Source of the DNA: an uncultured Planctomycetota bacterium
GTDB taxonomy: Bacteria > Planctomycetota > Planctomycetia > Isosphaerales > Isosphaeraceae
DNA: 64,000 nt
Assembly (NCBI GenBank): GCA_963823665.1
Contig: CAWGMQ010000003.1
Location: 1,344,001 to 1,408,000, forward strand
Direction: 5' to 3'
The notes beneath the pieces were generated by a model that saw only the letters and a program-made list of their open reading frames with translations, did no database searches and was not told the origin of the DNA. Positions 10,750 through 53,900 of the stretch are shown here, piece after piece. The translations under genes were made by a program, and so were the position numbers. The number at the start of each line of letters is the position of its first letter. Position 1 is the stretch's first letter.

Positions 10750-10941
10750 CCGATTCACGTCGATCGAGCCGGCCCGTGCGCGGCCCTTATATCGGAGGAA
10801 AGGTCGAATTCGAGAATTTCGGATTTTCTTCGTGCGTTTTTGGAAATCACTGCGTCTTCTCTATTAACCCGTGATATAAGCGACGTGATTTGCTGCCAGG
10901 AACGGTCGCGCTGAATGACCTGGTCCGTGGAGGGACCGCCC

Positions 10942-11556
10942 ATGGTCGATGGTGACGCGATCATCGGTCGTTTGATCGACGAGGCGAGGCGCCAGTCGCC
11001 GGGCGTTCTGGACCGGTTGCTGGAGTCGTATCGCAACTACCTGAGGCTTCTTGCTCGCACGGGCATCGACGCATCGCTGCGGGGCAAGGCGGATCCATCC
11101 GACTTGGTCCAGGAAACGCTGCTGAAAGCCCACCAGCACTTCGGGCAGTTCCAGGGCCACACCGAGACGGAGCTGGTCGCATGGCTGCGCCGGATCCTGA
11201 CGCGAAACCTGGCCGACCTGGTCCGTCGTTTCAAAGCGGCCGGCACGCGCACAGTCGCCCGCGAGCAGTCGCTGGACGACGTGATCGGTGCGTCGTCGCG
11301 TGCCTTGCTCGAGCTGGTCGCTCCCAACGGGCATTCGCCCAGCCAGTCGGCTCAGCGGCGCGAGCTGAGCATCATCCTGGCGGATGCCCTGGCCGAGCTG
11401 GCCTCTGACCACCGGGAAGTGGTCGTGCTCCGGACCCTGGAGGGCCGGGATTGGGAGGAAGTCGCCCGCGCGATGGGCCGCAGCCCAGGCGCAGTCCGCC
11501 TGCTGTGGGCGCGGGCACTCAAGAAGTTGCGTCCCCTGATCGAGTCACGGCTATGA
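10942..11556 (+). CDS. ECF RNA polymerase sigma-70 factor, planctomycete kinase-associated type
   Basis: YRNYLRLLAR...KADPSDLVQETLLKAHQHFGQFQG..AWLRRIL (region 2) and EEVARAMGRSPGAVRLLWARAL (region 4). GGAGGG RBS. The stop overlaps the kinase start (ATGA). Confidence 0.92.
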   Translation: MVDGDAIIGRLIDEARRQSPGVLDRLLESYRNYLRLLARTGIDASLRGKADPSDLVQETLLKAHQHFGQFQGHTETELVAWLRRILTRNLADLVRRFKAAGTRTVAREQSLDDVIGASSRALLELVAPNGHSPSQSAQRRELSIILADALAELASDHREVVVLRTLEGRDWEEVARAMGRSPGAVRLLWARALKKLRPLIESRL

Positions 11557-14500
11557 CCGCAAGCAGAGTCACCGAGAGCAAGCCCACGACCGCGAGCGAG
11601 GTCCGGCTGGTCGAGGTCCTGGACGCCTACATGGCCGCCGCCCAGGAGGGGCGTGCGCCGACGAGGGACGAGCTGCTGGCCGAGCATCCCGAGCTGGCCG
11701 AGGATTTGGAGGCGTGCCTGGCGAGCCTTGAGTTTATTGGGCGGGCGTCGCTGGCGGCGCCGCCGGTGGTTTTTGATTCCCCGTCGGCCGAAGCGGGTGA
11801 AGGCGAGCCGGGGATTGGAGACCTGGGCGACTTTCGGCTGGTCGCGGAGATCGGCCGGGGCGGTATGGGCGTGGTGTACGAGGCGGTGCAGCGCTCGCTG
11901 AACCGCCGGGTGGCGCTCAAGGTGCTTCCGTTCGCGGCGGCGATGGACCCGACGCAGCTTCGGCGGTTTCAGACCGAGGCTTTGGCCGCGGCGCAGCTTC
12001 ATCACACGCATATCGTGCCGGTCTATTCGGTGGGCTGCGAGCGAGGCGTGCATTATTACGCCATGCAGTTCATCGAGGGGCAGACGCTGGCGCAGGCGAT
12101 CGCCGAACGCAAGCTGGCACGCGATTCCGAAGCCTGAGCGCCGAACAGTCACGCGAACTGTCGACCGAGACCCAATCCGGACTCTCCGACTCGCGCACCG
12201 CTCGCCCAGCCCGTCCTCGCGCAGCCGAGAGTACTTTCGAAAAGCCGCCGAGCTGGGCATCCAGGCGGCCGAGGCGCTCGACCACGCGCACAAGGTCGGC
12301 ATCGTGCATCGCGACATCAAGCCGGCCAATCTGCTTGCTGGACGTCCAGGGCAACCTCTGGGTCACGGATTTCGGATTGGCCCGACTCCGGGATGACACC
12401 GGCCTGACGATCACGGGCGACTTGCTGGGAACGCTCCGCTACATGAGCCCTGAGCAGGCGCTGGCGAAGCGGATGGTGATTGACCATCGCACCGACATTT
12501 ACTCACTGGGTGCGACGCTCTACGAGCTGGTGACGCTCCATCCGGCGATCGATGGGCAAGACCGGCAGGAGATCCTCCGCAAGATCGCGCAGGATGAGCC
12601 GACGCCCCCACGACGGTTGAACCCGTCGATCCCGCGCGAGCTGGAGACGATCCTGCTCAAGGCGATGAACAAGGAGCCGGAATCGCGGTACGCGACGGCT
12701 CAGGAGCTGGCCGACGATCTGGAGCGGTTCCTCGACGGCAAGCCGATCAAGGCGCGGCGGCCGACGTTCCTGGAGCGCGCGACGAAGTGGACACGCCGCC
12801 ACCGGACTCTGGTCGGCTCCGCCGCGGTTGTACTGATCATTGCGGTGATTGGCCTGTCGATCGCCGCGGCGCTCATCTGGCGTGAACGGGACAGGACCCA
12901 GAGGGCGTACCGGGCAGAAGCCGAGCAGCGCACGCTGCTCGCGACAAACCTGGACCTGGCGCTCAAAGTACTGGATGAGATTTATCTTGACGTGGCCGAG
13001 AAGCGCTTGCCGCGCAAGTCGCAATTCGAGTCAGAGGACCGCGAGCTCTTGCGGAAGGCGCTGGCGTTCTACGAGCTCTTCGCGACCCAGAACGATACGA
13101 GCCGGCATGCTCGATTCGAGGCCGGCAGCGCGTACGATCGGGCCGGGAACATCCGGTATATCTTGGGTGAGCATGTTCGCGCCCAGGAGGATTACGATCG
13201 GGCCATCTCCGTGCTGGAACAATTAACCGCCGAAGCGCCCGCGGAGCCTCGGAACCGAAAGCGCCTGGCCGAGGTTTACGCCAGTGTGTGCAGAGTTCTG
13301 AGAAAAAAGGGGAACCCGCGCGAGGCGGAGCGAGTCGGTCGCCAGGCCCTTGCCATCCGCCAGAAGCTGGTCGACGACTTCCCCCAAGATAGGGCCTACA
13401 GGTTCGATTTGGCCAAGAGCTACCACGGGCTGCTCTTGTCGCTGGCACATGGCGGCTCGCTTCCAGAAGCCGTCGAATCCGGGCAACATTCCATCGAGAT
13501 ACTGGAAGGACTGGTGAGGGAGTTCCCCCAAGAATCTAAATACGCGAGAGAGCTCTCCAACGCCTACAACACGCTGGGCGTTCAGGTTTGGTCCTTCGGG
13601 CGGACTAAGGAGGCAGCGGCCGACTACCGCAAGGCCGTGGAGATTCTGGTGAAGCTGGTTGGGGACAATCCCACTGGCGCCGATGACCGGGTAAGTCTAG
13701 GTTATCTCTGCCAGAACCTGAGCGTCGTGCTCGGCCCCGACGAGATGGCGGCCAGAGAGCGCTACACCCGCCAAGCCGTCCGCCTCTGGGAGCAATTGGC
13801 GAGCGACTTTCCCAATGTCCGCGAGAATCAGAACTGTCTGTCCTCCAACTATGACATTCTTGCCGACCTACTGAGCGACCAAGGCCTCCGGGAGCAAGCC
13901 GACCAGGCTCGCCGCCGGGCCCTCGAAATCCGCGAACGCATGGTGCAACGCGACCCTGACGTGCCGGTCTATCGGTCCGCGCTCGGTGCCACGCTTAACA
14001 ATCTGGCTTTGGACCTAACGGCGAGGGGCGAGGTAGCTGAAGCCCGGCGCCTTCTCGATCGAGCGATCCAGCAGCAGCGCATCGCGCTCGGGACGAATCC
14101 GGCCAACCCCGTCTGCCGCCAGTTTCTGCGGAATCATCACGCCGCACGCACACACGTCCTGATCGGCCTCGGAGCGCACAAGGAGGCGGCTCTGGCCGCC
14201 GCGGAACTGCCGCGCTTCTCGCCCCTACAATGGCAGGACCACATCCTGGCCGCGCAGATCCTCGCAACCTGCTTCTCAGCGACCGATGCCGACGCCAGGA
14301 TTCCGCTGCCGGAGCGCGAGGCCGAGGCACGGTCCTACGCGAACCAGGCTGAGATTCTCCTTCGCGACCTTCCCGGGCTGATTGGCGACGAACCAGAGGG
14401 CCTCAAAAGATTGGCGACCATGCTGGCAAACTGCGAAGTTGTCCGCTTCCGCGACCCGGCGCGGGCGGTGGGCCTGGCGACGAAGGCCACTGAGCTGCTT

Positions 14501-14839
14501 CCGAACGATCCGGCGAGTTGGAGCACGCTGGGCCTGGCGCATCACCGTGCTGGTAACTTGAAAGACGCGATCGATGCTCTGAAGAAGTCGATGCAGCTTG
14601 GCTCTAGTGGCAATGTTTCCGATTCGTTCCTACTGGCGATGGCCTACTGGCGGAATAACGAGAAGGATCAAGCCCGCCAATGGTATGGCAGGGCCATCGA
14701 AACAATGGAGAAGGACCATTCAGAGGACGATGAACTCCGCCGCTTTCATGCCGAGGCCTCAGCCCTGCTGGGCCTGACCGACCATCCGACCCGTTCCGGG
14801 AAGAAGGAGGAAAACACGCCGCCGCAATCGAAGCCGTGA
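11553..14839 (+). CDS. Ser/Thr protein kinase with TM helix and C-terminal TPR repeats (frameshifts near 12130 and 12334)
   Basis: [10 protein letters not shown] and VALK lie in the first frame. [37 protein letters not shown] is read manually in a second frame at ~12220-12333. [13 protein letters not shown], the TM ([20 protein letters not shown]) and TPRs lie in ORF 12335-14839. Confidence 0.88.
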
Positions 14840-24704: not shown

Positions 24705-27656
24705 ATGGCAGGCGTTCATCTCGGGTCCGCACTCGGTCAGATTCACCGGTTATTTGACGAAGGAACACTGGCGGGGCTGCCCGACGCCCGGCTGCTGGAG
24801 CGGTATGCGTCCGAGCGCGACGAGCTGGCATTTGAAACGCTCGTGAAACGCCACGGCCGCATGGTGATGACGGTGTGCCGCGGGGTCGTCGACGACCCCA
24901 ACGACGCGGACGATGCGTTCCAGGCTGCGTTTCTGTTGCTGGCACGCAAAGCCGGTGCGTTGTGGGTCCATGATTCGCTGGGGGGCTGGCTTCATCGCGT
25001 GGCTTGCCGCATCGCGCTTCGACTGAGATCCGACGCTGCTCGCAGGCGCGAAATGGAACGGCGGGGCAGCGAGCGAACGGGCTGGTGGTATTTCGCGGCA
25101 GAGCCCCGCGCCGACATTCACACCGTGCTGCATCAGGAAATCGACCGCCTGCCGGAGCGGTTCCGCAAACCGATCGTGCTGTGCTATCTGGAGGAGATGA
25201 CCTATCAGCAGGCAGCCATCCATCTTCGTTTGAGCGAGGGGACAACCCGCGGCCGGCTGGCGCAAGCGCGCGACATGTTGCGGGCGCGGTTGAGCGAGAG
25301 GGGCATCCCGTGCGCTGGAGCTGGGTTGCCGGTCCTTTCCGGGGCGGCGCGACTCCTGGCGCCGGAGCTGCTCAGCTCGACCGTTCGCGCGGCGCGTCAT
25401 TTCACGCTCGGCAACATGGTGGCTGCAGGAATCGCGCCTGCCACGGCAACCGTGCTCGCCAGGCAAGCGATGCACACAATGATGCTCACCAAGCTCAAGG
25501 CGGCCGGGGCCGGTGTGATTGCGATTGGGTTGTTGACATGGGTCGCCACCGGATCTGCCGCCGTAGGGCCTATGGAAGCGATCGCGACGGAAGCCGGGAA
25601 GACGCCGATCGAACGCGAGACGCCGCCGACAACGGGGGCTGCACGAGGGGCGCGTGTCGAGCAAGCGGACGCTGCCGGCAAGCAAAATCAGTCTCTCCCA
25701 TTTCAAGGAACGGTTCTTGGGCCGGATGGAAAGCCAGTTTCCGGCGCCGTGATTTACACTTTCATGCCCAAGCGCGGAGAGATTCCCAGGGCGGTCTCGC
25801 GAGCCAAAGGGGGTGACGACGGGACATTCCGGTTCGACGTGAGCAAGGCCGAGTTTGATGCCGTCATTGACATCGCGCCGATGGCGACTGTCATGGTGGT
25901 CGCAGCGGCGCCGGGTTTTGGACCAGACTGGGTTGCCGTGCGCAAGCCGCTCCAGGGAGGGCTGTCGCTGCGTCTCGTTGAAGATTCGGTGCCGATCGAG
26001 GGCCGGATCGTCGACCTACAAGGAAAACCCGTCGCGGGCGCCAAGATCTCGCGGGGTTGGATCAAAGCGGAAGGACCTGGCGGCATCGATCCTTATCTGG
26101 CGCTTGTACGGGACGACCCGATGCAGGCTTCGAACCACAACTTCGCCAAGAATTACTGGGATGGCTTCGAGCTGCCGGGCCAGCCGCTATCTGTCGTGAC
26201 GGACGCCGGCGGCCGATTTCGGCTGATCGGAATCGGACGGGACCGGATCGTGTCGATCGGCATCGAGGGGCCGACGATCCAGAGTGCGACGATCGAGGTC
26301 ATGACCCGTCGAGGCGAGAAGGTGTCGTCGCCGCCGGGCGCATTTGCGGGCGAGACCATTTACCCGGCTACGTTTGAACACTTCGTCCCTCCAGGCCGCG
26401 CGCTTTCCGGAATCGTGCGGGACAGAAAAACCAAGATGCCGATCGCCGGCGTCGAGGTCGGCGGGCGAGAAACGAGCGCGCGAACGAAAACCGATGAACA
26501 CGGGCGCTTCGCGCTCGGGGGATTTCCCAAGGGCAAACAGTACGGCCTGATGGTTCTGGCGGGTGAAAAACCCCCGTACTTCGTAACGTGCATGGCGGTG
26601 CCGGACATGGCGGGGCTCGAGCCGATCGAAGCGAACGTCGAGTGCCTGCCGGGAATTCCGATGCGGCTCAAGCTCATCGACAAGGAAACCGGCATGCCTT
26701 TGCGGAATGCCGACGTCTACTATCAGCCGATTTACCCCAATGCCCACTCTCGCGAAGTCTCTGGATACTCCCCCGTCATGGGTAGCGGCCCTTACAGCTC
26801 GGGAGTTGTTCAGGAAGATGGCTCTTATCTGCTCGGCGTCTTGCCGGGCCCGGGGGCTGTCTTTGTACGCACGCCACCAGGATTGTTTCGGCCGGCTTGC
26901 GTCGACCCGAAGAAGTTCTTCAAGGTACACGATTCGCCGGATCCCAAGAAGGAGCGCTCGCCGCGTTATGGCGACACGGACACGATCAACACAGCCGTCG
27001 GCGAGGGGTGGGCCGGAATACCGCAGTCGCAGTTCAGCGGCATCGCGCTCGTCGACCCGGCAGAGGATTCGGGTCCGATCACGGCGGAGCTTGCTCTCGA
27101 GCGCGATTCGAAGCGCGAAGTGCGCGTGGTTGGTCCGGATGGGGACGTGCTCAGGGACGTTGTGGCGGAAGGGAGCGGTGCCGAATCGAACCCGATTTCA
27201 GGTGTTGTCACCGTGTCGCAGCTCAATCCCCTTCGCCCTCAGCGATTCACATTTCACCAGGATTCCAAGAAACTTGCCGGCTTCTTGATTGCCAGAGGCG
27301 ACGAGCCCGAGCCATACGTCGTCAAGCTCCAGCCGTGGGGAACAATCACGGGCCGACTTGTCGATGCCGAGGGAAAACCACGCCCGAGAGTCGACTTGAT
27401 GACGAGAGATTGGGGAGCCGCGCTGCTCAACCCGGCGCGTGGGGTGATTCATTACGGCCAGAAGACGGACAAAGACGGCCGATTTCGCTATGAGCGACTC
27501 ATGCCCGGCCAGGAGTATTCGGCAGTCGCGGTCGGTGAACAAGCAGCGAAAGGGGGATTCGGCGTGGTGATCGACCGCGTCGTGCTCAAGCCCGGCGAGA
27601 CCAAAGATCTGGGTGCTGTGCAGTCGCGCATGGATAAGCCGGAGATGAAGCCTTGA
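24705..27656 (+). CDS. ECF sigma factor with C-terminal extension (hydrophobic segment plus carboxypeptidase-regulatory-like beta-sandwich repeats)
   Basis: DARLLERY..DELAFETLVKRHGRMV, DDAFQAAFLLLARKA, WLHRVA and LPERFRKPIVLCYLEEMT..GTTRGRLAQAR. Then KLKAAGAGVIAIGLL and repeated GxVxDxxGKPVxGA...TDxxGRF. Confidence 0.9.
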   Translation: MAGVHLGSALGQIHRLFDEGTLAGLPDARLLERYASERDELAFETLVKRHGRMVMTVCRGVVDDPNDADDAFQAAFLLLARKAGALWVHDSLGGWLHRVACRIALRLRSDAARRREMERRGSERTGWWYFAAEPRADIHTVLHQEIDRLPERFRKPIVLCYLEEMTYQQAAIHLRLSEGTTRGRLAQARDMLRARLSERGIPCAGAGLPVLSGAARLLAPELLSSTVRAARHFTLGNMVAAGIAPATATVLARQAMHTMMLTKLKAAGAGVIAIGLLTWVATGSAAVGPMEAIATEAGKTPIERETPPTTGAARGARVEQADAAGKQNQSLPFQGTVLGPDGKPVSGAVIYTFMPKRGEIPRAVSRAKGGDDGTFRFDVSKAEFDAVIDIAPMATVMVVAAAPGFGPDWVAVRKPLQGGLSLRLVEDSVPIEGRIVDLQGKPVAGAKISRGWIKAEGPGGIDPYLALVRDDPMQASNHNFAKNYWDGFELPGQPLSVVTDAGGRFRLIGIGRDRIVSIGIEGPTIQSATIEVMTRRGEKVSSPPGAFAGETIYPATFEHFVPPGRALSGIVRDRKTKMPIAGVEVGGRETSARTKTDEHGRFALGGFPKGKQYGLMVLAGEKPPYFVTCMAVPDMAGLEPIEANVECLPGIPMRLKLIDKETGMPLRNADVYYQPIYPNAHSREVSGYSPVMGSGPYSSGVVQEDGSYLLGVLPGPGAVFVRTPPGLFRPACVDPKKFFKVHDSPDPKKERSPRYGDTDTINTAVGEGWAGIPQSQFSGIALVDPAEDSGPITAELALERDSKREVRVVGPDGDVLRDVVAEGSGAESNPISGVVTVSQLNPLRPQRFTFHQDSKKLAGFLIARGDEPEPYVVKLQPWGTITGRLVDAEGKPRPRVDLMTRDWGAALLNPARGVIHYGQKTDKDGRFRYERLMPGQEYSAVAVGEQAAKGGFGVVIDRVVLKPGETKDLGAVQSRMDKPEMKP

Positions 27657-29027
27657 AACGTCACACAGAGGATCCATGGGCGGTCTACCATCCGACCCCC
27701 GAAGCTCCGTGGAACTGCCGACGGGTTGTGCATCTCCACCGCCGGGCGGGTTTTGCCGCCTCGTGGCCGGAGATTCAGCGTGACCTGAAAGACGGCCCCG
27801 CGGCCAGTATCAGCCGAATTTTCGAAGGAAAGGTGCGGGCACCGTTGGTGGCCGAGCGTTTTGGGGAGGTGAGCGCCGCACTCGCGGACGCGGCGATCAG
27901 TGCGGATGATCCTGAACGCCTGAAGGCCTGGTGGGTTTTTCGCATGCTGTGCGGGCCGGACCCACTCGGTGAACGGCTGACGTTGATGTGGCACGATCAC
28001 TTCGCAACCAGCAACCAGAAGGTCAACGACCTGCCGGCGATGCGGCGCCAGAACGAGATGTTTCGATCGCTGGCCCGAGCGCCGTTCGGCGACCTGCTGG
28101 GCGCCGCGGTCCACGACCCGGCGCTCCTGGCGTGGCTCGATGCTCCGGCCAACCGCAAGGGACATCCCAACGAGAATCTTGCGAGAGAGCTGATGGAGCT
28201 TCTCTGCGCTCGGCATCGGCAATTACACCGAAGTCGACGTGAAGGAGGCTGCCCGCGCCTTGACGGGATGGACCGTCGCCGACGGTGTATTTCAAGAGGC
28301 GAGCGAACTGCACGACGCAGGCGAGAAGACCATATTCGGCCGGAAGGCCCGCTGGACCGGGTCCGACTTGATCAAGGCCCTGGTCGAAATGCCGGCGACC
28401 TCGTTGCGGCTGGCGCGGCGGCTCTGCGGGCTCTTTTTTGGCGAATCGGGACCTGACGAAACCGCGGTGCGATCCCTGGCCGCCTTGCTGCGCGAGCACC
28501 GGCTGGACGTCGGCTGGGGCGTCGCCACGATCTTGAGGTCGGGTGCGTTCTTCGCCGATGTGAACATGGGTACGCGAGTGCTCAGCCCGGTCGAATATAT
28601 GGTCGGCGCCACCATCGCGCTGGGACGCACGAACGAGCCGCCGTCGACGCTGGTGCTGGCCGACTGGATGGCGCGGCTGGGTCAGGACCTCTTCTATCCA
28701 CCCAACGTGGGTGGCTGGCCCGCGGGCCGGTCGTGGCTCTCGTCGCGGTCGCTGATCGGGCGCACCAACTTCGCGTCGGCTCTGGTTGAGGGGTTGCCCG
28801 TCGGGCTCCCCGCGCCGATTGACGCTGGCGAACTGGCCGGGCAGCAAGGCAAGCCGTGCGATTTCGTTCAGGTGATTCAGGCTGCAGCGGCACTGTTTTT
28901 CGGTACCGAGCCTGAGCCAAACTGGCGTGACCGGATCGCACGGGCATGCGAGGCGGACCGCAATTCGGGCGGCTTCCGCCGGGCCGTCGCCCTCGTGCTT
29001 GCATCTCCGGAAGCACAACTGGGATAG
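27653..29027 (+). CDS. DUF1800 family protein (frameshift near 28200)
   Basis: HLHRRAGF, PLGERLTLMWHDHFATS, LD..NRKGHPNENLARELMEL in the first frame; VKEAARALTGW, LGQDLFYPPNVGGW, LVLASPEAQL in the second. Confidence 0.88.
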
Positions 29028-43263: not shown

Positions 43264-43668
43264 CGGCGAGACGGCGAGCCAAACTCTACAGGCCGCGGCC
43301 GCCTAAGTGCTTACGCTTTCGGGGATTACGCTTGCCGTGAATCTTGGCGCGGCGGCCCTTGGCGACCGGTGAGCTGTCGCACCGCTTCCGCCACTTGTAG
43401 CTTTTCCGATTTCGCGATTTGGCCTTCATAACCCTTGCGGTCTCCTGAGAGAGTGATCGAACGGGCCGATCGCTCCTCACCGGTCTGTTGGGACGAAAAG
43501 TCGTATTATGCCGATTGGATTGCCGCGTGTTCAAGGTGAGGCAGGCGGTGATCGCCGCGTCCTGGCGGTTGAATTACAATGACAAGAACACGGGGAGGAG
43601 AGATTCGTAAGGAATACTGTGGTTGTTGTTTCTGGCGGGCGCGGGATCGGCGATCGAAGGGGATTCTT

Positions 43669-46600
43669 GTGGACGATCTGAAGCGCGATCTGCTGGTGGC
43701 CGTGCTGGCGGTGCTGACGGATGCGATTCCCCGCACGAACCTTGCTGCGGTGCTGAAGACGTGGTCGGAGAAGTGTGAAGAGCCGCTAGCGGAGGCGCTC
43801 AAGGCGGCGACCGGCCTGGATGACGAGCGGTTTCATGCGCTCGAATGTCTGGCGGCGGCCCATTTGAAAACGCATCAAGACGACCTTCGTCTGAGCCTTC
43901 AGGCGCTGGGCGCTCAATCGCTTACTGACGACGTGCTGACGGAGGCGGACGACGGGGACGAGCGCACGCTGGCGAGCCCCTTGTCCGAGGGCGAGTCGAC
44001 AATTCCGATGGACCAGGAGATTCACGGAGAGAAGGACCTGGGTTTCACGCTTGACCCGTTCCTGCGTGCAAAGGCTTCCGCCGGCGCGAAGGACGAGCGG
44101 TTCAAACTGATTCGCCCGCATGCGCAGGGGGGAATCGGGCAGGTCTGGCTGGCGCATGATTCCGAGCTTTCTCGGGACGTCGCCGTCAAGGAGATTCAAC
44201 CGCGATACGCCGGGCGTGAAGACCAGCGAGCGCGGTTCGTGCTGGAGGCGGAGATCACCGGCAGCCTGGAACACCCCGGAATCGTGCCGGTGTATAGCCT
44301 GGGAAGGAACGCCGAAGGCCGGCCCTACTACGCGATGCGATTCATCCGCGGCGAGAGCCTGCTGGTGGGGCTGCGGCGGTTTCACAAGGTCTTTGGCGAA
44401 GAGCCCACCGGCGCTGCCGACGACGACGCGACCGTGAAAGACGTCGAGACAGAGCCCGCGGAAAAGAAAGAGCCAGCGGCGAACGATGCCGACCGGCAAG
44501 CCGCGGTGCGGTCGAAGTGGGGGATCGAGTTCCGGCAGTTGATCGGGCGGTTCCTGGATGTTTGCGACGCCATCGACTATGCGCACAGCCGCGGGGTGCT
44601 GCACCGAGACTTGAAGCCGGCAAACATCATGCTGGGCCCGTATGGCGAGACGCTGGTCGTGGACTGGGGGCTGGCGAAGAAGATCGGCACGGTTGAGCCG
44701 GCGGGGCCAAAGGAGGAAGGCGAATTCGATCCTCCGCCAGCCGAGGAAGCGGGAGCCACGCTTCCGGAGGGAACGCAGCAGGGAACCACGATTGGCACAC
44801 CGGCGTACATGAGCCCGGAACAAGCGCGGGGATTGATCGATCAGCTCGGGCCGGCCAGCGACGTTTACAGCCTGGGAGCCAGCCTGTACGAGGTGATCAC
44901 GGGGAAGGCGCCGTTCCACGAGAAGAAGCTCTCGGTGGTCATTGCCAAGGTGATTGCGGGCGATTTCCTGCCGCCGCGAGCCCTTGACCGCACGATTCCG
45001 GCGCCGCTAGAAGCGATTTGCTTGAAGGCCATGGCGAAGAAGCCGGAAGCCCGCTACGGCTCGGTTCGCGCGCTGGCGCAGGACCTCGAGCACTGGCTGG
45101 CCGATGAACCGACGGCGGCTTATCCCGAGAGCCGGGTCGAAAAGATGACGCGCTGGTTCCGGCAACACCGGGCTTGGACGTTCGCCGGTGCGGCTGCGCT
45201 GGTGCTTGTTTCCACCGTGGCCGTTGTTGCGGCGGTGGTAATCGAGGGGGCCAGGCACCAGGAGGAAATTTCGCGCAAGGAAGCCGAGACCAATTTCGCC
45301 ATGGCCCAGAAGGCCGTTGATGATTATTTGACCAATGTGAGTGAGAACACGCTGCTCAAGGAGCAAGACTCCGTCGACATCCGAAGCCTGCGCCGCGACT
45401 TGCTCAAGAGTGCCCTCACCTTCTACGAGCACTTCGCCGCCGAACGGAAGAACGACCCCCTGCTCCGCCAGCAACTGGCGTGGGCGTATTTCCGCGTCGG
45501 TCAAATCACCCGTGAGATCGACTCGCTCGAGCAAGCGATGGTCGCGTTCCGCTCGGCTGAGGAGATCTGGGAAGCGCTGGTTGCGGCTAGCCCGAGCAAT
45601 CGGGAGCTCGCGGGCAACCTGGCCGAATGCTATCTGGCCATGGGAAAACTGGAGTCCTTCAACAGCAATTTCCCAGCCGCGCTCGCTACCCTGGACCGCT
45701 CAAGTACGATCCTGGAACCTATTTGCCAGAGAATAAACGCCGAGCCGCGTTACCAGGCGAGCCTGGCCGACTGTTATTCGGAAATCGGGATCGCGTACGC
45801 CAGGCTGGACAATCCGGACAAGAGCCTCGACATCCATGAAAAAGCCAGAGCGATCCAGCAAGGCCTGGTCGACCGATTCCCGGATAATCTGGCGTACAAA
45901 AAGGGCCTTGCGGAAAACTTGAATGCGATCGGTTTCGCCTATTACAGGCGGTACCACAATCAGAAAAAGACTGAAGATATCACCGCCGCTCTCAAGGCGT
46001 TTCACGACGTGCAAGAGTTCTGTCAGGGGCTCTTGAAGGAACTTTCGTACGAGACCAAGCCGACCTGGCTGCTGAACCTGCTGGCGCTCTCCCAGTACAA
46101 CATCGGCAGCATCCACAAGGCGAGCGGAGAACTCGAGAAAGCTTTGCCGTTCTTCGAGGAATCGCTCAAGTATCGGTCGGACCTTGCGGAAGAGCACCAG
46201 TCCGTGACCCGGTTCCGGGAGAAACTCGGGGTGAGTTACCGCGACTTTGCCGAGCTGCTGCACAAAGCTGACCAGGACGAGAAGGCCATTCCTACGGTCA
46301 AGAAGTCGATCGACGTGTTCGCACAACTCGTCCATGCTCAGCCCGAGACGGCGAGTTTTCACGGCGGCCTGGCGCTCTCCTGGAACAGCCTGGGGATCAT
46401 GCACGACGAGGCTCGGCAGAACGCCACGGCGATCGGCGATTTCGAGCGCGCGGTCCAGGAGCAACGAACGGCCATCGCGAATTCCAAATCTGCTGACGAC
46501 TACAAGCTGCCTCTGTGCTATTACCTCGACAACCTGGGAGAGCAGTCCATCGACCTGGGGCGCCCTGCGGAGGGCCTTCCCCACTATGAAGAAGCGATTC

Positions 46601-47358
46601 GAATACGCCGCGAACTGAGCCGGAACCACCCCGGAAAACTGGAGGATGTCGCCGAGGTGGTCCAGGCACTCGTTGTGCTGGGAAACATCAAGCGCCGCCT
46701 GGGCGAAGTAGACACGGCGCGGCGATTGTTCGCGGACGCACGAAAGGCTTCGGAGGAAGCGCTCAAGAAGCCACCGGGCGATCCCGCACTCGAGGCCCAG
46801 CTTGCCTTCGCGGTGACGGGCCAAGCGGTGTTACTGGCCGAGGAAGCGCAGCTCGAAAAGGCCAAGCCGTTGCTCGAAGATGCAGCCGACCGGTTTCGAC
46901 GGATTGCGGGCCGTGCGGAGCCCGAGAGCACGCTGGCAACGGAACGTGCGCGGCGCAGCGAGACGCTCTGGAACCTCTCGCGCGTTTTGCGAGACCTCAA
47001 ACTGCTCGAGGACGCAGCACGCTTCGACGTTGAACGAACCGACCTGTGGAAAACCCGGGCGCCTGTCGAACTGGTCGACCTCGCGATCAAGCATCTCGAC
47101 CAGGCCAAGCTGATCGGGTACGGAAAGACGCCGCACTCGACCCGCGCCACCGCCGTTCGCGAGCTCGACCTGAGCCAAGCGGCCGATGAGGTGATACTGG
47201 CGATCTCGAACGGCTTCAAGGATCTCGCAAAGCTCAAGGCCGTTCCCGATTGGCATTTGCTTCTCGAGCGGCCAGATGTCAAATCCGCGATCGAGAAACT
47301 CGAATCGGTCGAGCGAGCGCCGGGAGGGCATCGAGTCAAGAAGACCGACAATCATTGA
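43669..47358 (+). CDS. Transmembrane Hanks-type Ser/Thr kinase with long C-terminal TPR array
   Basis: HAQGGIGQV, VAVK, HRDLKPAN, VVDWGLAK, GTPAYMSPEQ; TM FAGAAALVLVSTVAVVAAVVI; many TPR-like helical repeats. GTG start after GAAGGGG. Confidence 0.92.
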   Translation: MDDLKRDLLVAVLAVLTDAIPRTNLAAVLKTWSEKCEEPLAEALKAATGLDDERFHALECLAAAHLKTHQDDLRLSLQALGAQSLTDDVLTEADDGDERTLASPLSEGESTIPMDQEIHGEKDLGFTLDPFLRAKASAGAKDERFKLIRPHAQGGIGQVWLAHDSELSRDVAVKEIQPRYAGREDQRARFVLEAEITGSLEHPGIVPVYSLGRNAEGRPYYAMRFIRGESLLVGLRRFHKVFGEEPTGAADDDATVKDVETEPAEKKEPAANDADRQAAVRSKWGIEFRQLIGRFLDVCDAIDYAHSRGVLHRDLKPANIMLGPYGETLVVDWGLAKKIGTVEPAGPKEEGEFDPPPAEEAGATLPEGTQQGTTIGTPAYMSPEQARGLIDQLGPASDVYSLGASLYEVITGKAPFHEKKLSVVIAKVIAGDFLPPRALDRTIPAPLEAICLKAMAKKPEARYGSVRALAQDLEHWLADEPTAAYPESRVEKMTRWFRQHRAWTFAGAAALVLVSTVAVVAAVVIEGARHQEEISRKEAETNFAMAQKAVDDYLTNVSENTLLKEQDSVDIRSLRRDLLKSALTFYEHFAAERKNDPLLRQQLAWAYFRVGQITREIDSLEQAMVAFRSAEEIWEALVAASPSNRELAGNLAECYLAMGKLESFNSNFPAALATLDRSSTILEPICQRINAEPRYQASLADCYSEIGIAYARLDNPDKSLDIHEKARAIQQGLVDRFPDNLAYKKGLAENLNAIGFAYYRRYHNQKKTEDITAALKAFHDVQEFCQGLLKELSYETKPTWLLNLLALSQYNIGSIHKASGELEKALPFFEESLKYRSDLAEEHQSVTRFREKLGVSYRDFAELLHKADQDEKAIPTVKKSIDVFAQLVHAQPETASFHGGLALSWNSLGIMHDEARQNATAIGDFERAVQEQRTAIANSKSADDYKLPLCYYLDNLGEQSIDLGRPAEGLPHYEEAIRIRRELSRNHPGKLEDVAEVVQALVVLGNIKRRLGEVDTARRLFADARKASEEALKKPPGDPALEAQLAFAVTGQAVLLAEEAQLEKAKPLLEDAADRFRRIAGRAEPESTLATERARRSETLWNLSRVLRDLKLLEDAARFDVERTDLWKTRAPVELVDLAIKHLDQAKLIGYGKTPHSTRATAVRELDLSQAADEVILAISNGFKDLAKLKAVPDWHLLLERPDVKSAIEKLESVERAPGGHRVKKTDNH

Positions 47359-47678
47359 CACCCGGGGCGCCTCGCGTTGCCGGTCGCTCTCTGATCAGGC
47401 GTATAGAACTTCTCATTTATTTTTGGAAAATCGCCAAAAAGCCAGTAAGGTGGGAGTGAGGGCATACGTATCATAGGGTGAAGTGACACGGCGGGGCTGG
47501 CCGGCACGAAGGATCGCTGGAAAGAGTGATCGGGTGCGAGGGATGGACTGGAATCGCCCTTGCTACGATGGACTCGATTCGGAGATGCCGCAGTGCATGG
47601 CTGATCCGTGCCGGACGAGGATGTCGTGGAGATACGGAGTTCGGAGTCATGGGCAACCCTTTCGCGTGGAGCAAGAAA

Positions 47679-47849
47679 ATGTCGACGCAACCGTCTCAGC
47701 CGACCAAACCAGCAACCAAGCCCGAAAAGCCAACCGACGCCACGGCGCTGCTTTCGCCTGAAGAGCTTCGCGCGATCTCCGGCGGGGCATCGCAGCCTCC
47801 GCCGACGACGGGTGGCGGCGGTAGTGGTGGTGTGCAGCCGAATACTTAA
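47679..47849 (+). CDS. Small peptide (56 aa) with double-glycine leader; putative secreted signal or RiPP precursor
   Basis: GGAG RBS 7 nt before the ATG. MSTQPSQPTKPATKPEKPTDATALLSPEELRAISGG|ASQPPPTTGGGGSGGVQPNT. LSPEELRAISGG matches the LSxxELxxIxGG consensus. An NHLP-type HlyD gene is adjacent. Confidence 0.8.
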   Translation: MSTQPSQPTKPATKPEKPTDATALLSPEELRAISGGASQPPPTTGGGGSGGVQPNT

Positions 47850-47868
47850 CAGACCATTGAGGTCATTG

Positions 47869-47905
47869 GCCCATTCGTTGCCCCGAAAGGGTTACGAACT
47901 TGGGC
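47869..47905 (+). other. Stem-loop with GAAA tetraloop downstream of the peptide gene
   Basis: GCCCA-TTCGT-TGC-CCC-GAAA-GGG-TT-ACGAA-CT-TGGGC. No U-tract, so more likely an mRNA stabiliser or attenuator than an intrinsic terminator. Confidence 0.5.
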
Positions 47906-48006
47906 GTCGACGAAATGCGAGAATCGCCGCACGATTCGCCCCTGTCGCGTAAACTCGCGCAGGGGCCTTTTCTTTCGCCAAGAGCACTTTCGATCGGAGC
48001 TGCGTG

Positions 48007-49362
48007 ATGAGCGACGCGGTGGTTTCGACGCCGAGCCCAGCGCCGAGCGTCCCAAGCCCAGGGTTTGAACGCCTGGATACCCTGGTGCGGGTTACCACCA
48101 TCCAATCTTGGGTGTATCTGGGCCTTTTGTTTGCCGTTGGGACGGCGGCGGTTGCGTTTGCGATTCTGTATCGCGTACCGACCAAGGTGATGGGCGAGGG
48201 GATTCTGCTGATCGAGCAGGACACGATTGCCCAGGTGCGCGCGCAGGCGACTGGCCGGCTGGTGAGCCTGCACGTGAAGCTTGGCGATCGGGTCGAGCCG
48301 GGAAAGGTGATCGGGGAGATTTCTCAAGAAGAGTTGAACGATTCGATACTCGAGGCAGAGGCGAAGCTCGCGGATCTTGTTGAGGAGGACCTCGAGCTCA
48401 CGCGGTTTGAGCGGCTCGAGAGGGTGACGCATGGAAAGGCGATGGACGGAGTGAAGCTTGCGACCGGGCAGGAGCAGAAGAGCTCGCGAGAGAAGTTAAT
48501 GATCGCCGACCACATGGTCAAGGGGACCAACCGGCTTCGAATGCAGTATTCGATGAGCGATCAGGAACTACTTGAGGCACGCGAAAAGAAGTTCAGTATC
48601 GAGAATGACGTGAACAAAGGCGACACCCGATTAGCCGAGTTGGACCTGGAAGGGACCAAGGCAGAGACCGCCCGGCGCGCGCGCGGATCGAACGGAAGCA
48701 CAAGATCAATCAGCTCGAGCGAAAGCTGGAGCTCGACCGCGGGAAGATGGTGCGGATGTCGAAAGTCGTGAGCCGCTTCAGCGGCGTCGTGGCGCAGGTC
48801 TTTTGTGCGCGTGACGAACTGGTGAAAGAGGGGGGGCCGGTCGTTTTGCTGCACTCCCCCAAGTCTGAGCACGGACTTGACGATGCCGGCGTGCCATATG
48901 ACTCAATCGTGTTCGTGCCGGCCGGCGATGGGAAGAAGATCGATACCGGGGACGTGGTGGAAGTGAGCCCGACGACGGTGAAGCGAGAGGAGCACGGTTT
49001 CATTCGCGGCGAGGTGGTGGCCGTCTCGGAGCTGCCCGCGACCAAGCTGGCGATGGAGTCCGCGCTTCAGCATCCGGAGCTGGTCGAGAGCTTCGTGAAA
49101 CGACACGCGCCCGGGGTTTTGCTGCGGGTCCACGTCAAACTCAACCCGGCGAGGGAAACTGACCTCAAGCGTGCGCGAATCGGGCTGCACCGATCCTAAC
49201 CACTACGATTGGTCATCGTCGTCGGGGCTTACTCAACGGCTCAAGACGGGAACCATGTGCCAGGCGGCGATCGTGGTGGAGCGGAGGAGGCTGATCAGCC
49301 TGGTGCTGCCGTGGACGAAGAAGATCATGAGCGGGACGGAGGCGGGGTCGAAGATCGATTGA
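48007..49362 (+). CDS. NHLP/NHLM bacteriocin-system-type secretion protein (HlyD membrane fusion protein; frameshifts near 48680 and 49170)
   Basis: FERLDTLVRVTTIQSWVYL..TM..VPTKVMGEGILL, VKLGDRVEPG (lipoyl half), coiled coil, VVSRFSGVV, FVPAGDGKKI..GDVVEVSPTTVKREEHGFIRGEVVAVSELPAT, YDWSSSSG..LKTGTMC..IVVERRRLISLVLP. This is the TIGR03794-like pattern. Confidence 0.85.
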
Positions 49363-49410: not shown

Positions 49411-50952
49411 TCAGTTCGAGCCGATGGCGGCGGGATAACCGAGCTGGTTGATGAGTTGCGAACCGATCTGGTGATCGAGCTCATCGGCGCGGCGGTAGTC
49501 GGCCATGGCCTTCTTCCGATCGCCTTTCTTATCCCAAGCAAGTGCCCGGTTCGCGTACGCCTCGGCATTTCGAGGCTGGATGCGGATCGATTCGTTGAGG
49601 TCGGCGATGGCCTTGTCGTATTCGTTCCTGGCCAACAGGGCTGCGCCCCGATTCAGGTACGAACCGAAATCACGAGGGTCGAGACGGATAGCCGCATTGC
49701 AGTCGGCCACAGCTTTGTCGAACTGTCCTTTCAGGAGCCAGGCGCCAGCGCGGTTGTTGTAAGCCAACGTGAATTGAGGATTGAGCCGAATCGCTTCGGT
49801 GAAGTCGGCGATGGCCTGGTCGTACTGCTGCATCCACCGCCAGGCGAAGCCGCGTTTGTTGAACGCTACGGCGAGACCAGGCTCGAGGCGGATGGCTTGG
49901 TTGAGGTCTGCGATGGCCTTGTCGAACTCTTTCAATTCGGATCGGCAGTGGGCTCGATCGACGTAGAACGAAGCCTGGCGCGGCTCGAGCGCGATGGCGT
50001 GGTCGAAGTCGCCAATGGCGCTGTCGTAAAGCTTTTTCTGGATGAAGGCGGACGCGCGAAAGGCGTAGACCAATGAGGAGCGGCTGTGGAGCCGAGTGGC
50101 TTGATCGAAATCGGCGATCGCCTTGTCGTAGTCGCGAGTTACAAGCCAGCAATGCCCCCGGACGGCGTAAACCCACGCGTCTTGCGGGTCGATCTGGATG
50201 GCTTGGTCGAAGTCCGCCATCGCCTTGCCGCGGTCGTTTTTGAACCACCATGCTTCGCCCCGCGCGGTGTAAGCTTTGGCCCGACCTGGGCTGAGTCGAA
50301 TCGCCGCGTCGAAGTCGGCCATGGCCATTTCGCGCTCGCGCGTTTGCTCCAAGGCTTTGCCTCGTCGGACGAGGACGTCGTAGTTTCGAGGATTCAGCCG
50401 GATAGCCTGGTTGAAATCGGCGATGGCTGCTACGTCCTGTTTCTTCTCGAAATAAGCGATTGCTCGAAACGCATAGCCGCTTGCTTGATTGGGCGCCAGT
50501 GAGATCGCCAGATTGGAGTCTGCGAACGCGCGGTCGAAGTCGTTCTGGTCGAGCCAGACAACAGTCCTCAGGATGAGCGGCACTGCGTCGCGAGGGTGGG
50601 CACGGATTTGCTCGGTGAAGTACGCGACGGCCTGTTCCACGGGAACGCACTCGGTGGCGAGGACGCGCCCGCTCAATCCGACACCGTCGGCTTTGAGCCA
50701 AAGGTAAGGACCATCGGCCCGTATGACGGTGTAGGTATAAATTTCCGTACTGCTCTGCAGGTCGCGCTCTTCCTCAGCGCGGAGCGCGAAGTTGCGGTGC
50801 TTCTGCACAACGCGCCTGCCGACCCAGTCGCCGGCCGAAGCTTGCTGGGCGTGAGCGTCTCTCGTCGGGGCGATCATCACGGCGAGGGAAGTACAGAGAA
50901 TCGACAGCCAGAATCGAGTGGTCCCGAAGGTGCGCGGGTTTCTGAGTTCCAT
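49411..50952 (-). CDS. Secreted TPR-repeat protein
   Basis: AAGGAG RBS; signal peptide ending AHA; about ten canonical TPRs (AYNNRAGAW..FDKAVADCNAAIRLDP). Confidence 0.9.
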   Translation of the reverse strand: MELRNPRTFGTTRFWLSILCTSLAVMIAPTRDAHAQQASAGDWVGRRVVQKHRNFALRAEEERDLQSSTEIYTYTVIRADGPYLWLKADGVGLSGRVLATECVPVEQAVAYFTEQIRAHPRDAVPLILRTVVWLDQNDFDRAFADSNLAISLAPNQASGYAFRAIAYFEKKQDVAAIADFNQAIRLNPRNYDVLVRRGKALEQTREREMAMADFDAAIRLSPGRAKAYTARGEAWWFKNDRGKAMADFDQAIQIDPQDAWVYAVRGHCWLVTRDYDKAIADFDQATRLHSRSSLVYAFRASAFIQKKLYDSAIGDFDHAIALEPRQASFYVDRAHCRSELKEFDKAIADLNQAIRLEPGLAVAFNKRGFAWRWMQQYDQAIADFTEAIRLNPQFTLAYNNRAGAWLLKGQFDKAVADCNAAIRLDPRDFGSYLNRGAALLARNEYDKAIADLNESIRIQPRNAEAYANRALAWDKKGDRKKAMADYRRADELDHQIGSQLINQLGYPAAIGSN

Positions 50953-50977
50953 AGTCCGGCTCCTTGTTTGGATCGGC

Positions 50978-53900
50978 TCACTCCGGCTGCGAGTCTGTGC
51001 GGGCTCGGTTGATGGCTCGGAGGGCATCGCCGACGGGGGGGAGAGGCTCGACGGATGTTTTGAAGTTGGACGGCGTGCCTCGGACGTGGGCGATGAAGAA
51101 CTGACTGCTGGTGCGGCGGGCGAATTCGCTCACCAGCGGGATGTGCAGGCGATCGCGACCCCACAAGAGGTTGAGCCGGAGGTCCATGTAACCCTGGGGA
51201 TCAAGCGTGCCGCGGCCCATCAAACTGAAGGCATTGCCTGTGAACTTGATGGGATCGAACGTGGTGATGCCGTTGGCGATGCTGAAGTTGACGTCTGCGG
51301 AGTCAAACACCGTTCTTCCCTGGCCGCGGTTCTTGTCGAGCGAGGCGACGCTGATGCTGGGCACCGGGTTGATCACGGAGGCGACCCTCAGGACCGGCGG
51401 CAGCTCGCCCAGGTCGCCCTCGCGGATGTGGGCGTCGCCGCGGCCGTGGATGCTGTGCACGTCGCTGCCCAACCCGTCGAATGCGATCGTCGCGTCGATC
51501 AGGCCGCGGTAGGACTGGCGGCCGGAGATCGTGCGCGCGTATTCCTCGAGCCGCGCTTCCTTGAGCGAGAGCGCGGCATGGTACCGCGGGGTTGCGTCCA
51601 GACTGATCCAGCAGGCGTCGTCGGCGAAAACCTCGCCGCCCAGGTAGTGACCGCGGATGCTGTCGAGGGTTGCGCGGCCTTCTCTGACGTGGAACGGCGA
51701 CTCGAGCTGAGTGAACTGCTGGCCCATGAAGCTGACGCTTTCCAGCTTCATGATTCCCTCAACCGAGAGAGCCATGCCGTTGGACCAGCCGCTGACATTC
51801 TCGAGCTGGCCCTGGATGTGCTCGACGGGGATGGCCGTCCTGATTGCGTTGTCGTTGAAGATCACCTTGGTGTTCTTCCACCGGCACCAGGCAAGATCGG
51901 TTTCGCGACCTGACCAGCCAATTTCCAGATCTCCTCGAGCACGAAACGGCCCGCCGCCATCCAGGCGGAGAGCAAACTGGGCCATCAAGGGGGGCATCTT
52001 GATGCGGAGATCTCTGTCGAACCGGATTTCCTCCAGCCAGGCCTCCTGCACGCTGAGATCGAACTGACCGCTTTTGAGGAGGCGAAACTTTCCGCTCGAG
52101 AACTTGACGGGAGCCCCTCGGAAGCTGAAGTTCACGCGGGTCATCGTGACCTCGCCGTTATCGAAATCGAACTGGCCATGAACGTCGTCCATGGGCAACT
52201 CGATGGTGGCGCCGGGATCGATACCCGGCTGCGGCGAGCGTGTGACCATCAAGTGCACCGTCGACTCGTCACGAGGGATGATCCTGATCTGGGTGCGGTT
52301 CGGGCCGCCGGGGGCGACATGCACCCGGGCCAGGACGTTGCAGGAACCCGAGGGATTGATCGTGGGCCAGACGTTCCGCCACTCGTTGGGAAGGGCGATC
52401 TTGAGCTCCTCGCTGAATGGGAGCTTCTGCGCGTCGAGGGCAATGTCGATCTTGAGCGGCTCTTCGCGTCCAGGCCCCCTGCCCCGCGCCAGCCTTTCCA
52501 CCTTTTCGACGCTGCCGCTGGCCTTGATTTTCGCTTGCCCGTTGCTGCCGGTGACGTCTTTGAATGTCCATTTATCCGGATGAATTTCGAGGCGGCCTTT
52601 CAGGTTGCGAACCGGATAAGGGAGCCGATTCCACGTGATCTCGCAGCCCTCGGTGAGATCGATGTTGGCGTCGAAGGTGATGCGGCCTTGCGGAGGAGCG
52701 TCCGGTCCCTCCATCGGCTCGCGCTGGACCCTGGCATTCACGTTCACCAATCCACTGGCCTTGAACCCATCGACGACCTTGCGTACGTCCGGGGGCATGG
52801 CGTTCTTGATCGCGTCGTCGATCGGGAGAGATTCGCGCCTTCAAGTCGAGCTTGACGACGGCGTCCGGGCCCGGCTTCCAGATCGTTCCGGAAATCTGCA
52901 AGGGGCGGCCGCTCAGCGAATTCAAGTCGACGGAGAGCGTATTCTTCTCGAAGATCAAGTCACCGGTGAGATGGTCGAGCGGATAAGGAAAATGCCGATA
53001 AATCGCCGCGACATCGCGACAACGGACCCTGGCCGTCCAATCGTAGGGCGCACGCGAGTCGTGACGAGTCACGTGGACCGTGAGGTTCACTCTTCCCTGT
53101 GGCTTGAAGAGGTTCCAGAGGTCACCGTACTCAGCCGGCGTTCTCCTGCGCAGGCGGTCGTCGTCGAGCTCCAAGTCGTCGAGCTCGACGCGGAGATCCA
53201 CGGCGCCCTTCTTGTTTCCTTCGAGGACGATCACGCCAGCGGCGCTCAAGGTGGTGTTGCCGTTGGAGCCGTTGGCGTGCTTGATGGTGATGACCTGGTC
53301 TTCGACGCTGACGACGGCCGAGAGGTCGTTGACCGGGAAAGGGAGCAACGGGCAATCCCATACTCCCTCGCGCAGCCGGGCCACCATGTTGCACCGCAGG
53401 CAGCTTTCCGGTGGCGCGGCAGGGTCATACCGGAGCCGGCTCACCTCCAGGTCGAGCACGCCGCCGTTGAGCGCCATCGCCTGCACGCTGCGCCTCAAGC
53501 CGGGCGGGAGCTTGCGGCGGAGGCTTTCCGAGAGGACCAAGCCAGCGAGCTCACCACTGGCCTCGATGATGCCGGTTTTGAGATCGATTGATCCGGTGAG
53601 TGTGAGCCGCTCGAAACCATCTCCGCTGGCCGAGCCTTCGAACTTGAGCTCGCGGTCGGGCCTCGAGCCGGGATCGATTTTGAGGCTGACGTCGCGGAGG
53701 ATTGCCGGGCTGTGCTCGGCGACGGCGCGGGCCACCGCGGACGAGCCCTCAACCGTGGGTGAAGGGAGTGACCCGGCGCCGGGCGGCGAAGGCTCTCCAG
53801 GCGCTGCGCTCGGGTCGTCGCAAGGATAGAGCTCGACGGTGCCGTTGCGAATCTGGATCGGCGGTGTTTCGATCCAGGGTCCGGGCCAGGGATCCGCGAG

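Follow-up and report, generated by a model that had tools for sequence, protein, structure and literature searches.

We report on a short gene in a 64,000-nucleotide (nt) stretch of DNA, hereafter the window, from an uncultured planctomycete of the family Isosphaeraceae (assembly GCA_963823665.1, contig CAWGMQ010000003.1, positions 1,344,001 to 1,408,000). The genome comprises 16.46 Mb in 12 contigs and is 91.87% complete; the window belongs to its contig 3. The gene encodes a 56-amino-acid (aa) peptide with a double-glycine (GG) leader and lies between the genes for a receptor-type Ser/Thr kinase, with tetratricopeptide repeats (TPR), and an HlyD-family component of a peptide exporter. Comparison with related genomes indicates that this gene order is conserved across genera and that the peptide family combines conserved leaders with hypervariable cores, and we tentatively suggest that the peptide is an exported signal sensed by the neighbouring kinase. 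The features of the locus are as follows.

43579..47358, plus strand: receptor-type Hanks Ser/Thr kinase, 1259 aa, with Pkinase and TPR matches in Pfam
47416..47477, plus strand: conserved spacer block of ~60 nt, ~200 nt 5' of the start codon of the peptide gene and near-identical in the congener (a genome of the same genus)
47668..47671, plus strand: Shine-Dalgarno-like GGAG, 7 nt 5' of the ATG, kept in the congener
47679..47786, plus strand: leader peptide, 36 codons, MSTQPSQPTKPATKPEKPTDATALLSPEELRAISGG, with a K/P/T-rich N-terminal part
47787..47849, plus strand: core ASQPPPTTGGGGSGGVQPNT, 20 codons, and stop codon
47938..47975, plus strand: GC-rich hairpin (47938-47966) followed by CUUUUCUUU, between the peptide and HlyD genes
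48004..49362, plus strand: HlyD-family membrane-fusion protein of the NHLP-export type (TIGR03794; NHLP, nitrile hydratase-like leader peptide), starting 155 nt past the stop codon of the peptide gene

The peptide gene runs from the ATG at 47679 to the TAA at 47847-47849, and its product is MSTQPSQPTKPATKPEKPTDATALLSPEELRAISGG followed by ASQPPPTTGGGGSGGVQPNT. The leader ends in L(-12)xxxE(-8)L(-7)xxI(-4)xG(-2)G(-1), represented by L25, E29, L30, I33, G35 and G36, and fully matches the double-glycine consensus (L-12, E-8, L-7, a hydrophobic residue at -4, and GG). This consensus, and the C39 peptidase catalytic residues referred to below, are as given in the LahT paper (PMC6363468). A motif built from it, L-x3-E-L-x2-[IVLM]-x-G-G with a nearby end of the open reading frame (ORF) and an upstream Met required, matched once in the window and once in total over 200 simulated windows (first-order Markov), which argues that the match is more than chance. 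The double-glycine leader proposed in the sequence-only reading, a model's reading of the DNA without database searches, was thus borne out: all consensus positions are present and near-invariant in the family alignment, where T22, L25, E29, A32, G35 and G36 are invariant across 27 rows.

The congener copy departs from that of the window at 28 of 55 codons, silently at 18 of these; the differences fall 4/5/23 over the three codon positions and the ratio of nonsynonymous to synonymous substitution rates (dN/dS) is 0.16, with just two residue changes over the 19 core codons compared. The start ATG is kept in the congener, and an upstream ATG at 47650 is not. The homologues, the low dN/dS and the conserved Shine-Dalgarno sequence and ATG together show that the 56-codon gene is real and under purifying selection. 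In the mechanical ORF list it is covered only by a 107-aa GTG frame (47526-47849), so it is indeed hidden inside a longer ORF as first noted. Translation of 47787-47849 likewise upholds the description of the core, which has no Cys, no aromatic and no charged residue; five of its 20 residues are Ser or Thr, a single Val is the sole strongly hydrophobic residue, and there is no hydrophobic or amphipathic stretch. The core Cys expected of lanthipeptides, sactipeptides and thiazole/oxazole peptides is missing, and the structural view that the peptide is neither a lanthipeptide, a sactipeptide nor a lasso peptide proved right, as did the view that an uncharged core without a hydrophobic stretch does not follow the cationic class II bacteriocin pattern. 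No Pfam or NCBIfam family was matched by the peptide at E up to 1, in agreement with a leader that is neither Nif11- nor nitrile-hydratase-like.

Homologues that conserve the leader were sought and found: a word-indexed search of 5.8 billion proteins returned 25 with lengths of 53-70 aa and E values from 9e-26 to 4e-5, and in their alignment the leader is conserved and so is the core. Those that carry a name are annotated as hypothetical, and most of the gene calls begin at MS.QP. Close homologues keep the core type ASQPPPTxG..GxGGVQPN alongside the leader. A profile search of 1.84 billion representatives gave 160 proteins at E<=0.001, 32 of them at E<=1e-10 and nearly all 48-80 aa long. The family is missed or mis-started by ORF callers, as had been anticipated for annotation of the window peptide. 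When 18 aligned members were compared with Pfam and NCBIfam no family was reached, the best being faint, leader-only matches to GG peptides at E of at least 0.0017; for the NHLP leader family TIGR03793 the best of the 18 gave E 0.15, the leader being 36 aa long vs ~70-80 aa for the family domain.

Of the 150 best representatives, 127 could be parsed into leader and core; 23 were left out as long proteins, for lack of the motif or for a core outside 5-32 aa. The cores have a median length of 19 aa (range 7-31) and consist of 21% Pro, 12% Gly, 10% Thr and 9% Lys. Pro is present in 124/127 and PP in 78/127, Cys occurs in only four, and 13 have neither Ser nor Thr; the net charge is +1 to +3 in 112/127 and zero, like that of the window core, in 10/127. 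Among 22 genomic peptides, pairwise identity over the last 20 leader residues is 83% within genera (25 pairs) and 68% over all 231 pairs; for the cores the corresponding values are 33% and 27%. At the sequence level, then, leaders are conserved while cores are hypervariable, short and proline-rich. The window core type departs from this pattern, since it is found conserved widely, and it recurs behind more divergent leaders in two representatives (P0093 and P0116).

Matches outside Planctomycetota (Nitrosospira, Coriobacteriales and one metagenome-assembled genome) were rejected as chance motif matches inside unrelated frames. Four representatives (P0101, P0124, P0103 and P0044) are long proteins of many tandem leader-plus-core units, e.g. 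repeated VLSEETLTRTSGG with QAQQPPPPTMVPNHKSNHP, or nine ELSEEDLEAIVGG units with Cys-containing cores; each may be either a precursor with multiple cores or an array of peptide genes that is read as a single frame.

The gene order of the cassette is receptor kinase, peptide, NHLP-type HlyD and a fused C39 ABC1-ABC2 gene, i.e. both halves of an ATP-binding cassette (ABC) transporter. A profile of 18 peptides matches 30 of 121 genomes of the same family, in 14 of 53 genera and mostly in genomes of at least 9 Mb. With flanks of 1.5 kb, a kinase TPR upstream together with HlyD downstream was detected at 21 of the 30 loci; the remaining nine, two of which lie at contig ends, have HlyD only (six), the kinase only (one) or neither (two). 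Over 19 longer stretches the kinase is upstream in 18, HlyD is present in 18 and the fused ABC gene lies within reach after HlyD in 13; it is not within reach in this genome, in the congener and in four others, and three of these five other genomes are 96-99% complete. Among 15 metagenome contigs, mostly of 1-2 kb and for the most part too short upstream to include the kinase, the kinase was seen upstream in eight and HlyD downstream in 12, in the same order wherever reached. The adjacency of orthologous kinase and peptide genes is thus conserved across genera. No gene of a known modifying-enzyme family (Pfam/NCBIfam) belongs to the conserved cassette. There is no conserved ORF in the 320-nt spacer between kinase and peptide or in the 155-nt spacer between peptide and HlyD, and indels between window and congener mark the former as non-coding. 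In one relative (G069, stretch L038, 10696-12018) an alpha/beta-hydrolase-fold protein follows the peptide in place of HlyD.

The kinase has an N-terminal helical domain, a kinase domain (residues ~178-505), a membrane helix (~533-556) and a C-terminal TPR ectodomain of ~700 aa. Its single hydrophobic peak (Kyte-Doolittle value 2.65) follows the basic stretch RWFRQHRAW, and one helix preceded by a basic stretch was found in 10 of 10 kinases, which places the kinase domain in the cytoplasm and ~700 residues outside. K204, H342-R343-D344, N349 and D362 (the catalytic Lys, HRD, Asn and the Asp of DxG) are invariant in 10 aligned kinases; on the sequence evidence, all catalytic residues and the receptor topology are kept. 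The model of the ectodomain (predicted local distance difference test, pLDDT, 86.8; predicted TM-score, pTM, 0.81) is an all-helical, continuous TPR superhelix. Foldseek returned generic TPR superhelices from the PDB (Ctr9, Ski3, OGT and LGN), the highest target-normalised TM-scores (0.73-0.79) belonging to LGN TPR-peptide complexes, with the OGT TPR also among the best matches; as far as a predicted model can tell, these matches fit peptide binding without being specific for it. A paralogue on contig 4 (489000-503000, at 4505-8161), with an ectodomain 61-62% identical and placed as sister of the window kinase in the tree, has no adjoining peptide or HlyD and may be an orphan receptor.

The HlyD gene is broken into three frame pieces (48004-48673, 48675-49172 and 49174-49362), which match positions 6-179, 253-373 and 378-419 of the NCBIfam profile TIGR03794; they score below its cut-off, whereas the intact paralogue and the proteins of relatives score above it. 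Compared with the gene for the intact 460-aa congener protein, to which the product is 81-86% identical, it is 1 base short near 48673-48690 and 11 bases short near 49172-49190. Short-read contigs from two soil DNA runs, otherwise identical, carry an extra G after 48673 (263-nt contig) and an extra GC after 49172 (236-nt contig), at a low depth of 2-2.5; frame arithmetic and the stop-free translations of the three pieces indicate that these additions restore a single frame of ~455 codons. A third contig reaches only 5 nt beyond the second site and ends in 7 unaligned letters. Since short reads restore the frame and other genes are split alike (DUF1800 in the window and many genes in related assemblies), the two frameshifts are probably assembly errors, a strain difference being the alternative. 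The DUF1800 gene itself lies in two overlapping frames, 27653-28456 and 28239-29027, and represents another probable assembly indel.

The C39 domain that the sequence-only reading took for granted is absent from the 64-kb window, and that reading is corrected on this point. Full C39 matches were obtained at two places in the genome, in either case on contig 3 outside the window, and each is part of a single frame of ~1800-1900 aa in which TIGR03796 (peptidase/permease/ATPase) is fused to TIGR03797. The copy at contig 3:1458070, 66 kb downstream of the peptide gene, is 59-67% identical to the cassette ABC genes of relatives, compared with only 45-46% for the other copy, and on this comparison it is the orthologue of the cassette ABC genes. 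Likewise, the window HlyD groups with the cassette HlyDs at 44-81% identity vs 31% to the HlyD of the other ABC copy. The C39 domain at 1458070 has LahT150 (6mpz, E 3e-36) as its best match and keeps the catalytic Gln, Cys, His and Asp in the alignment; a C39 ABC protein with the catalytic Cys, His and Asp, as expected for GG cargo, is thereby predicted for the same system, albeit from a gene 66 kb away. The exporter family TIGR03794-TIGR03796-TIGR03797 was defined via its association with NHLP/Nif11 precursors (Haft et al. 2010, PMC2887384). A search of the 91.87% complete genome gave no precursor of the NHLP or Nif11 kind, a weak negative in that the NHLP control search matched no control genome, and for want of such a precursor the GG peptides become candidate cargo.

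At the distant ABC locus (contig 3:1450001-1468000, 8070-17280) the 1782-aa fused C39 ABC1-ABC2 gene has no adjoining HlyD or peptide gene; after it come the genes for a 373-aa protein that belongs to no known family and for an SPFH/Band-7 protein of 892 aa. In four relatives examined, too, the ABC gene is followed by a homologue of the former, and in one by a homologue of the latter. The 373-aa protein matched nothing in Pfam or NCBIfam, and its protein atlas scores were below 0.9.

A second export cluster without a kinase (contig 3:1090001-1108000, 6714-14313) is headed by the second ABC copy. It has two tandem GG peptides with the leader RELTD(D/E)EIAxxAGG (the ELTDEEIAxVAGG subtype) whose cores are VTISPGFPLQPGG and LSHKPNPPPMMPLGGG, as well as an intact HlyD of family TIGR03794 and a fused ABC1-ABC2 of 1934 aa. 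Further GG peptides, with the leader type of the window peptide but other cores, are present on the minus strand at contig 6:1566000-1580000 (~7140) and contig 4:1347000-1362000 (~7388); one of their cores is His-rich, HGVFLNMIVEKDKSNHAEHKPHHHHPHPG, and the other is TVSGTGTVHIGKPQ.

With respect to expression, the block at 47416-47477 is the sole well-conserved part of the upstream spacer, the remainder being full of substitutions and indels relative to the congener, and we regard it as a candidate promoter or operator. A consensus scan of 47300-48100 for sigma-70 promoters and terminators gave no site of either kind. The hairpin at 47938-47966 has a centroid energy of -22.6 kcal/mol (z -2.27), and the congener keeps its stem and changes its loop; a similar hairpin with a T-run lies 34-89 nt 3' of the stop codon in 8 of 19 peptide genes examined (18 loci). 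It is a candidate leaky terminator, which would yield a short, abundant peptide transcript together with read-through into the exporter genes. In one soil metatranscriptome three contigs, 90-99% identical to the window, cover only 47576-47785 within the 2 kb compared and end at the leader/core junction, which hints at expression of related copies.

The reading that we favour, tentatively and with the full chain falling slightly short of an even chance, is that the locus encodes an exported, probably unmodified signalling peptide that is sensed by the neighbouring kinase; export alone is, from the sequences of leader and exporter, very probable. The precursor would be cut after Gly36 by the C39 domain encoded 66 kb away, and the ABC pump, HlyD and an outer-membrane partner would export the 20-mer. 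This flexible Pro/Gly peptide, probably unmodified on release, would lie in the groove of the TPR superhelix of the upstream kinase and switch the kinase, which would then phosphorylate its targets; by analogy with PknS/EcfK these might include a sigma factor. Of the two roles first offered for the peptide, a signal or a substrate for Ser/Thr modification, signalling is the better fit to the evidence, because the receptor kinase is conserved directly upstream, because leaders are conserved and cores hypervariable, and because the cassette has no known modifying-enzyme gene and no room for an immunity gene.

Several known systems resemble parts of this arrangement. With the ComC-ComAB-ComDE and BlpC-BlpAB-BlpHR circuits it shares, on sequence grounds, the L-12/E-8/L-7/GG leader and predicted cleavage and export by a C39 ABC protein, and also a conserved leader with a diversifying mature peptide and an adjoining gene for a membrane kinase. 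The adjoining histidine kinase and response regulator that define those pheromone circuits were, however, not found among the scanned neighbours; the place of a polytopic histidine kinase with a response regulator is taken by a Hanks Ser/Thr kinase whose TPR ectodomain spans 700 aa, and there are in addition an outer membrane, an HlyD adaptor, a fused ABC1-ABC2 and proline-rich cores rather than hydrophobic or cationic helices. The kinase itself resembles PknS of Xanthomonas, described as a TPR receptor kinase that directly phosphorylates an extracytoplasmic function (ECF) sigma factor (PMC13147305), and the planctomycete Ser/Thr kinases described as mostly single-pass with periplasmic TPR or WD40 arrays and with functions 'mostly unknown' (PMC11032199). 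The likeness comprises a cytoplasmic Hanks kinase domain that is preceded by an N-terminal extension, one membrane helix and TPR repeats arrayed in the periplasm; no ligand is known for those kinases, whereas here a peptide and its exporter are tied to an orthologous group; unlike with PknS, no ECF sigma gene adjoins the cassette kinase in the window. RRNPP proteins (Rap, Rgg, NprR, PlcR, PrgX) would be similar in that a TPR domain binds a short secreted peptide, but theirs are cytoplasmic and the peptides re-imported, while in the present protein the TPR repeats lie outside the cytoplasm and form part of a kinase. In plants the CLE, CEP and IDA peptides, which are short, proline-rich and Cys-free, act on receptor kinases with a repeat ectodomain of leucine-rich repeats (LRR), one helix and a Ser/Thr kinase domain, a logic that the present system would resemble. 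The plant pairs differ in that there is no homology, in having LRR rather than TPR, and in using the secretory pathway rather than a GG leader and ABC exporter. Some members of the present family end in ...GH or ...HH.

A bolder claim, to which we give somewhat less than an even chance, is that, among the greatly expanded TPR receptor Ser/Thr kinases of Planctomycetota, this one is the first to be paired with a ligand, in a hormone-like, pherotype-diversifying form of cell-cell signalling in a two-membrane bacterium. With the same reserve we propose that the pair, consisting of a GG-leader peptide with a type I exporter of the peptidase-containing ABC transporter (PCAT) kind and a eukaryote-like receptor kinase, is a counterpart of plant peptide/receptor-kinase signalling. 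In the literature covered, which left out most subscription journals, we found no planctomycete GG peptide system and no peptide ligand of a TPR Ser/Thr kinase. Planctomycetes have ~100 or more membrane Ser/Thr kinases with periplasmic TPR/WD40 arrays, and the cues that these sense are described as mostly unknown (PMC11032199); a peptide and exporter genetically tied to one orthologous group of kinases provide a concrete candidate ligand. If the proposal is true, peptide quorum signalling extends past the histidine-kinase circuits of Gram-positive bacteria, the pattern of conserved leaders and variable cores is explained as pherotypes, and a route opens to de-orphanise other kinases. The family, with its 160 representatives, is unnamed and has no Pfam or NCBIfam model.

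A number of observations weigh against this reading. The genome has >100 matches to TPR-kinase-like ectodomains, and adjacency in one genome is therefore weak evidence; the case rests on conservation across genera, which are themselves related. Six loci have HlyD and no detectable kinase, neither of the kinase paralogues closest in sequence (62% and 45% identity) adjoins a peptide gene, and the GG peptides on contigs 6 and 4 have no detectable kinase or HlyD beside them. Between congeners the ectodomain is 52-69% identical vs 81-86% for HlyD, with the core nearly the same. Co-variation of core and ectodomain would be uninformative because the cores are saturated and the genomes related. A type I system normally frees its cargo beyond the outer membrane, and the TPR sensor is periplasmic. 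In addition, the metatranscriptome contigs come from relatives that are 90-99% identical, the +1 to +3 charge of 112/127 cores also fits an antimicrobial role, and a role as modifying enzyme is conceivable for the conserved 373-aa protein encoded next to the ABC gene.

As an alternative, the PCAT might export the peptide as a weapon, a bacteriocin or microcin-like product rich in proline, with a kinase that only regulates production or senses attack. Proline-rich antimicrobial peptides of similar length exist. Hypervariable cores are typical of weapons too, a mild positive charge prevails in the family (+1 to +3 for 112/127 cores), and GG peptides of Gram-negative HlyD/PCAT systems are often class II microcins; judged by sequence, these share with the window peptide a GG leader, PCAT and HlyD export and a two-membrane host. 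The class is, however, characterised by an amphipathic, hydrophobic or strongly cationic core and an adjoining immunity gene, and neither was found: the 20-residue window core is uncharged and without a hydrophobic or amphipathic stretch, family cores are short (7-31 aa, median 19), the peptide gene has next to it neither room for a conserved immunity gene nor any trace of one, and the conserved neighbour and partner is a receptor kinase rather than an immunity protein. On balance we consider a weapon unlikely. We regard as quite unlikely a ribosomally synthesised and post-translationally modified peptide (RiPP), the core being modified before export, through phosphorylation by the adjoining kinase or glycosylation or hydroxylation by distant enzymes, to give the active product. 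Five Ser/Thr in a 20-residue core, a cytoplasmic kinase domain in the same compartment as precursor synthesis, the conserved 373-aa protein after the ABC gene in several genomes, and the usual service of the NHLP-type exporter family to modified peptides (PMC2887384) would all suit it. As in the NHLP/Nif11 cassette and LahT (PMC2887384, PMC6363468), HlyD and both ABC halves fall in the same families and the C39 domain is LahT150-like; the differences from what those sources describe are a cargo without an NHLP/Nif11 domain and without Cys for lanthionine or azole chemistry, ABC genes fused into ~1800 aa, and no linked modifying enzyme. The conserved cassette lacks any known modifying-enzyme family, and the kinase is built as a sensor with a large extracytoplasmic domain, unlike a RiPP enzyme. 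Since 13/127 cores lack Ser/Thr and 123/127 lack Cys, no general Ser/Thr- or Cys-based chemistry applies, and modification of Ser/Thr in the window core itself may occur, as judged from its composition, but not as a family-wide rule.

Very unlikely, in our view, is an exported peptide that is neither signal nor weapon, e.g. a periplasmic or surface modulator of the exporter or envelope, with co-regulation behind the kinase linkage. Nothing physically links peptide and kinase, planctomycetes have an unusual envelope and periplasm, and SPFH-domain and function-unassigned proteins follow the ABC gene in some genomes, but the combination of conserved leaders with diversifying cores speaks for a specific partner, and we know of no such role for GG peptides. 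That the locus is decaying, with the peptide gene as a relic, is hardly credible. The deficits of 1 and 11 bases in HlyD relative to the congener, and the ABC gene 66 kb away, could point to decay, but independent soil short-read contigs carry the missing G and GC that restore one frame, similar splits affect further window genes and many genes of related assemblies, the peptide gene is intact with a dN/dS of 0.16, and the unlinked ABC gene is common to the five other stretches, three of them from genomes that are 96-99% complete.

Among the other genes of the window, a 538-aa TPR protein on the minus strand (49411-51027) converges on the HlyD gene, and a similar TPR protein is located at the same place in the congener (L037, 12034-13254) and not in the other genera examined. 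Two further Ser/Thr kinases are encoded at 107-3107 and 10915-14839, one of them followed by a WD40 propeller frame; the second is a TPR kinase whose frame begins inside the kinase domain and which adjoins an ECF sigma gene at 10915-11556.

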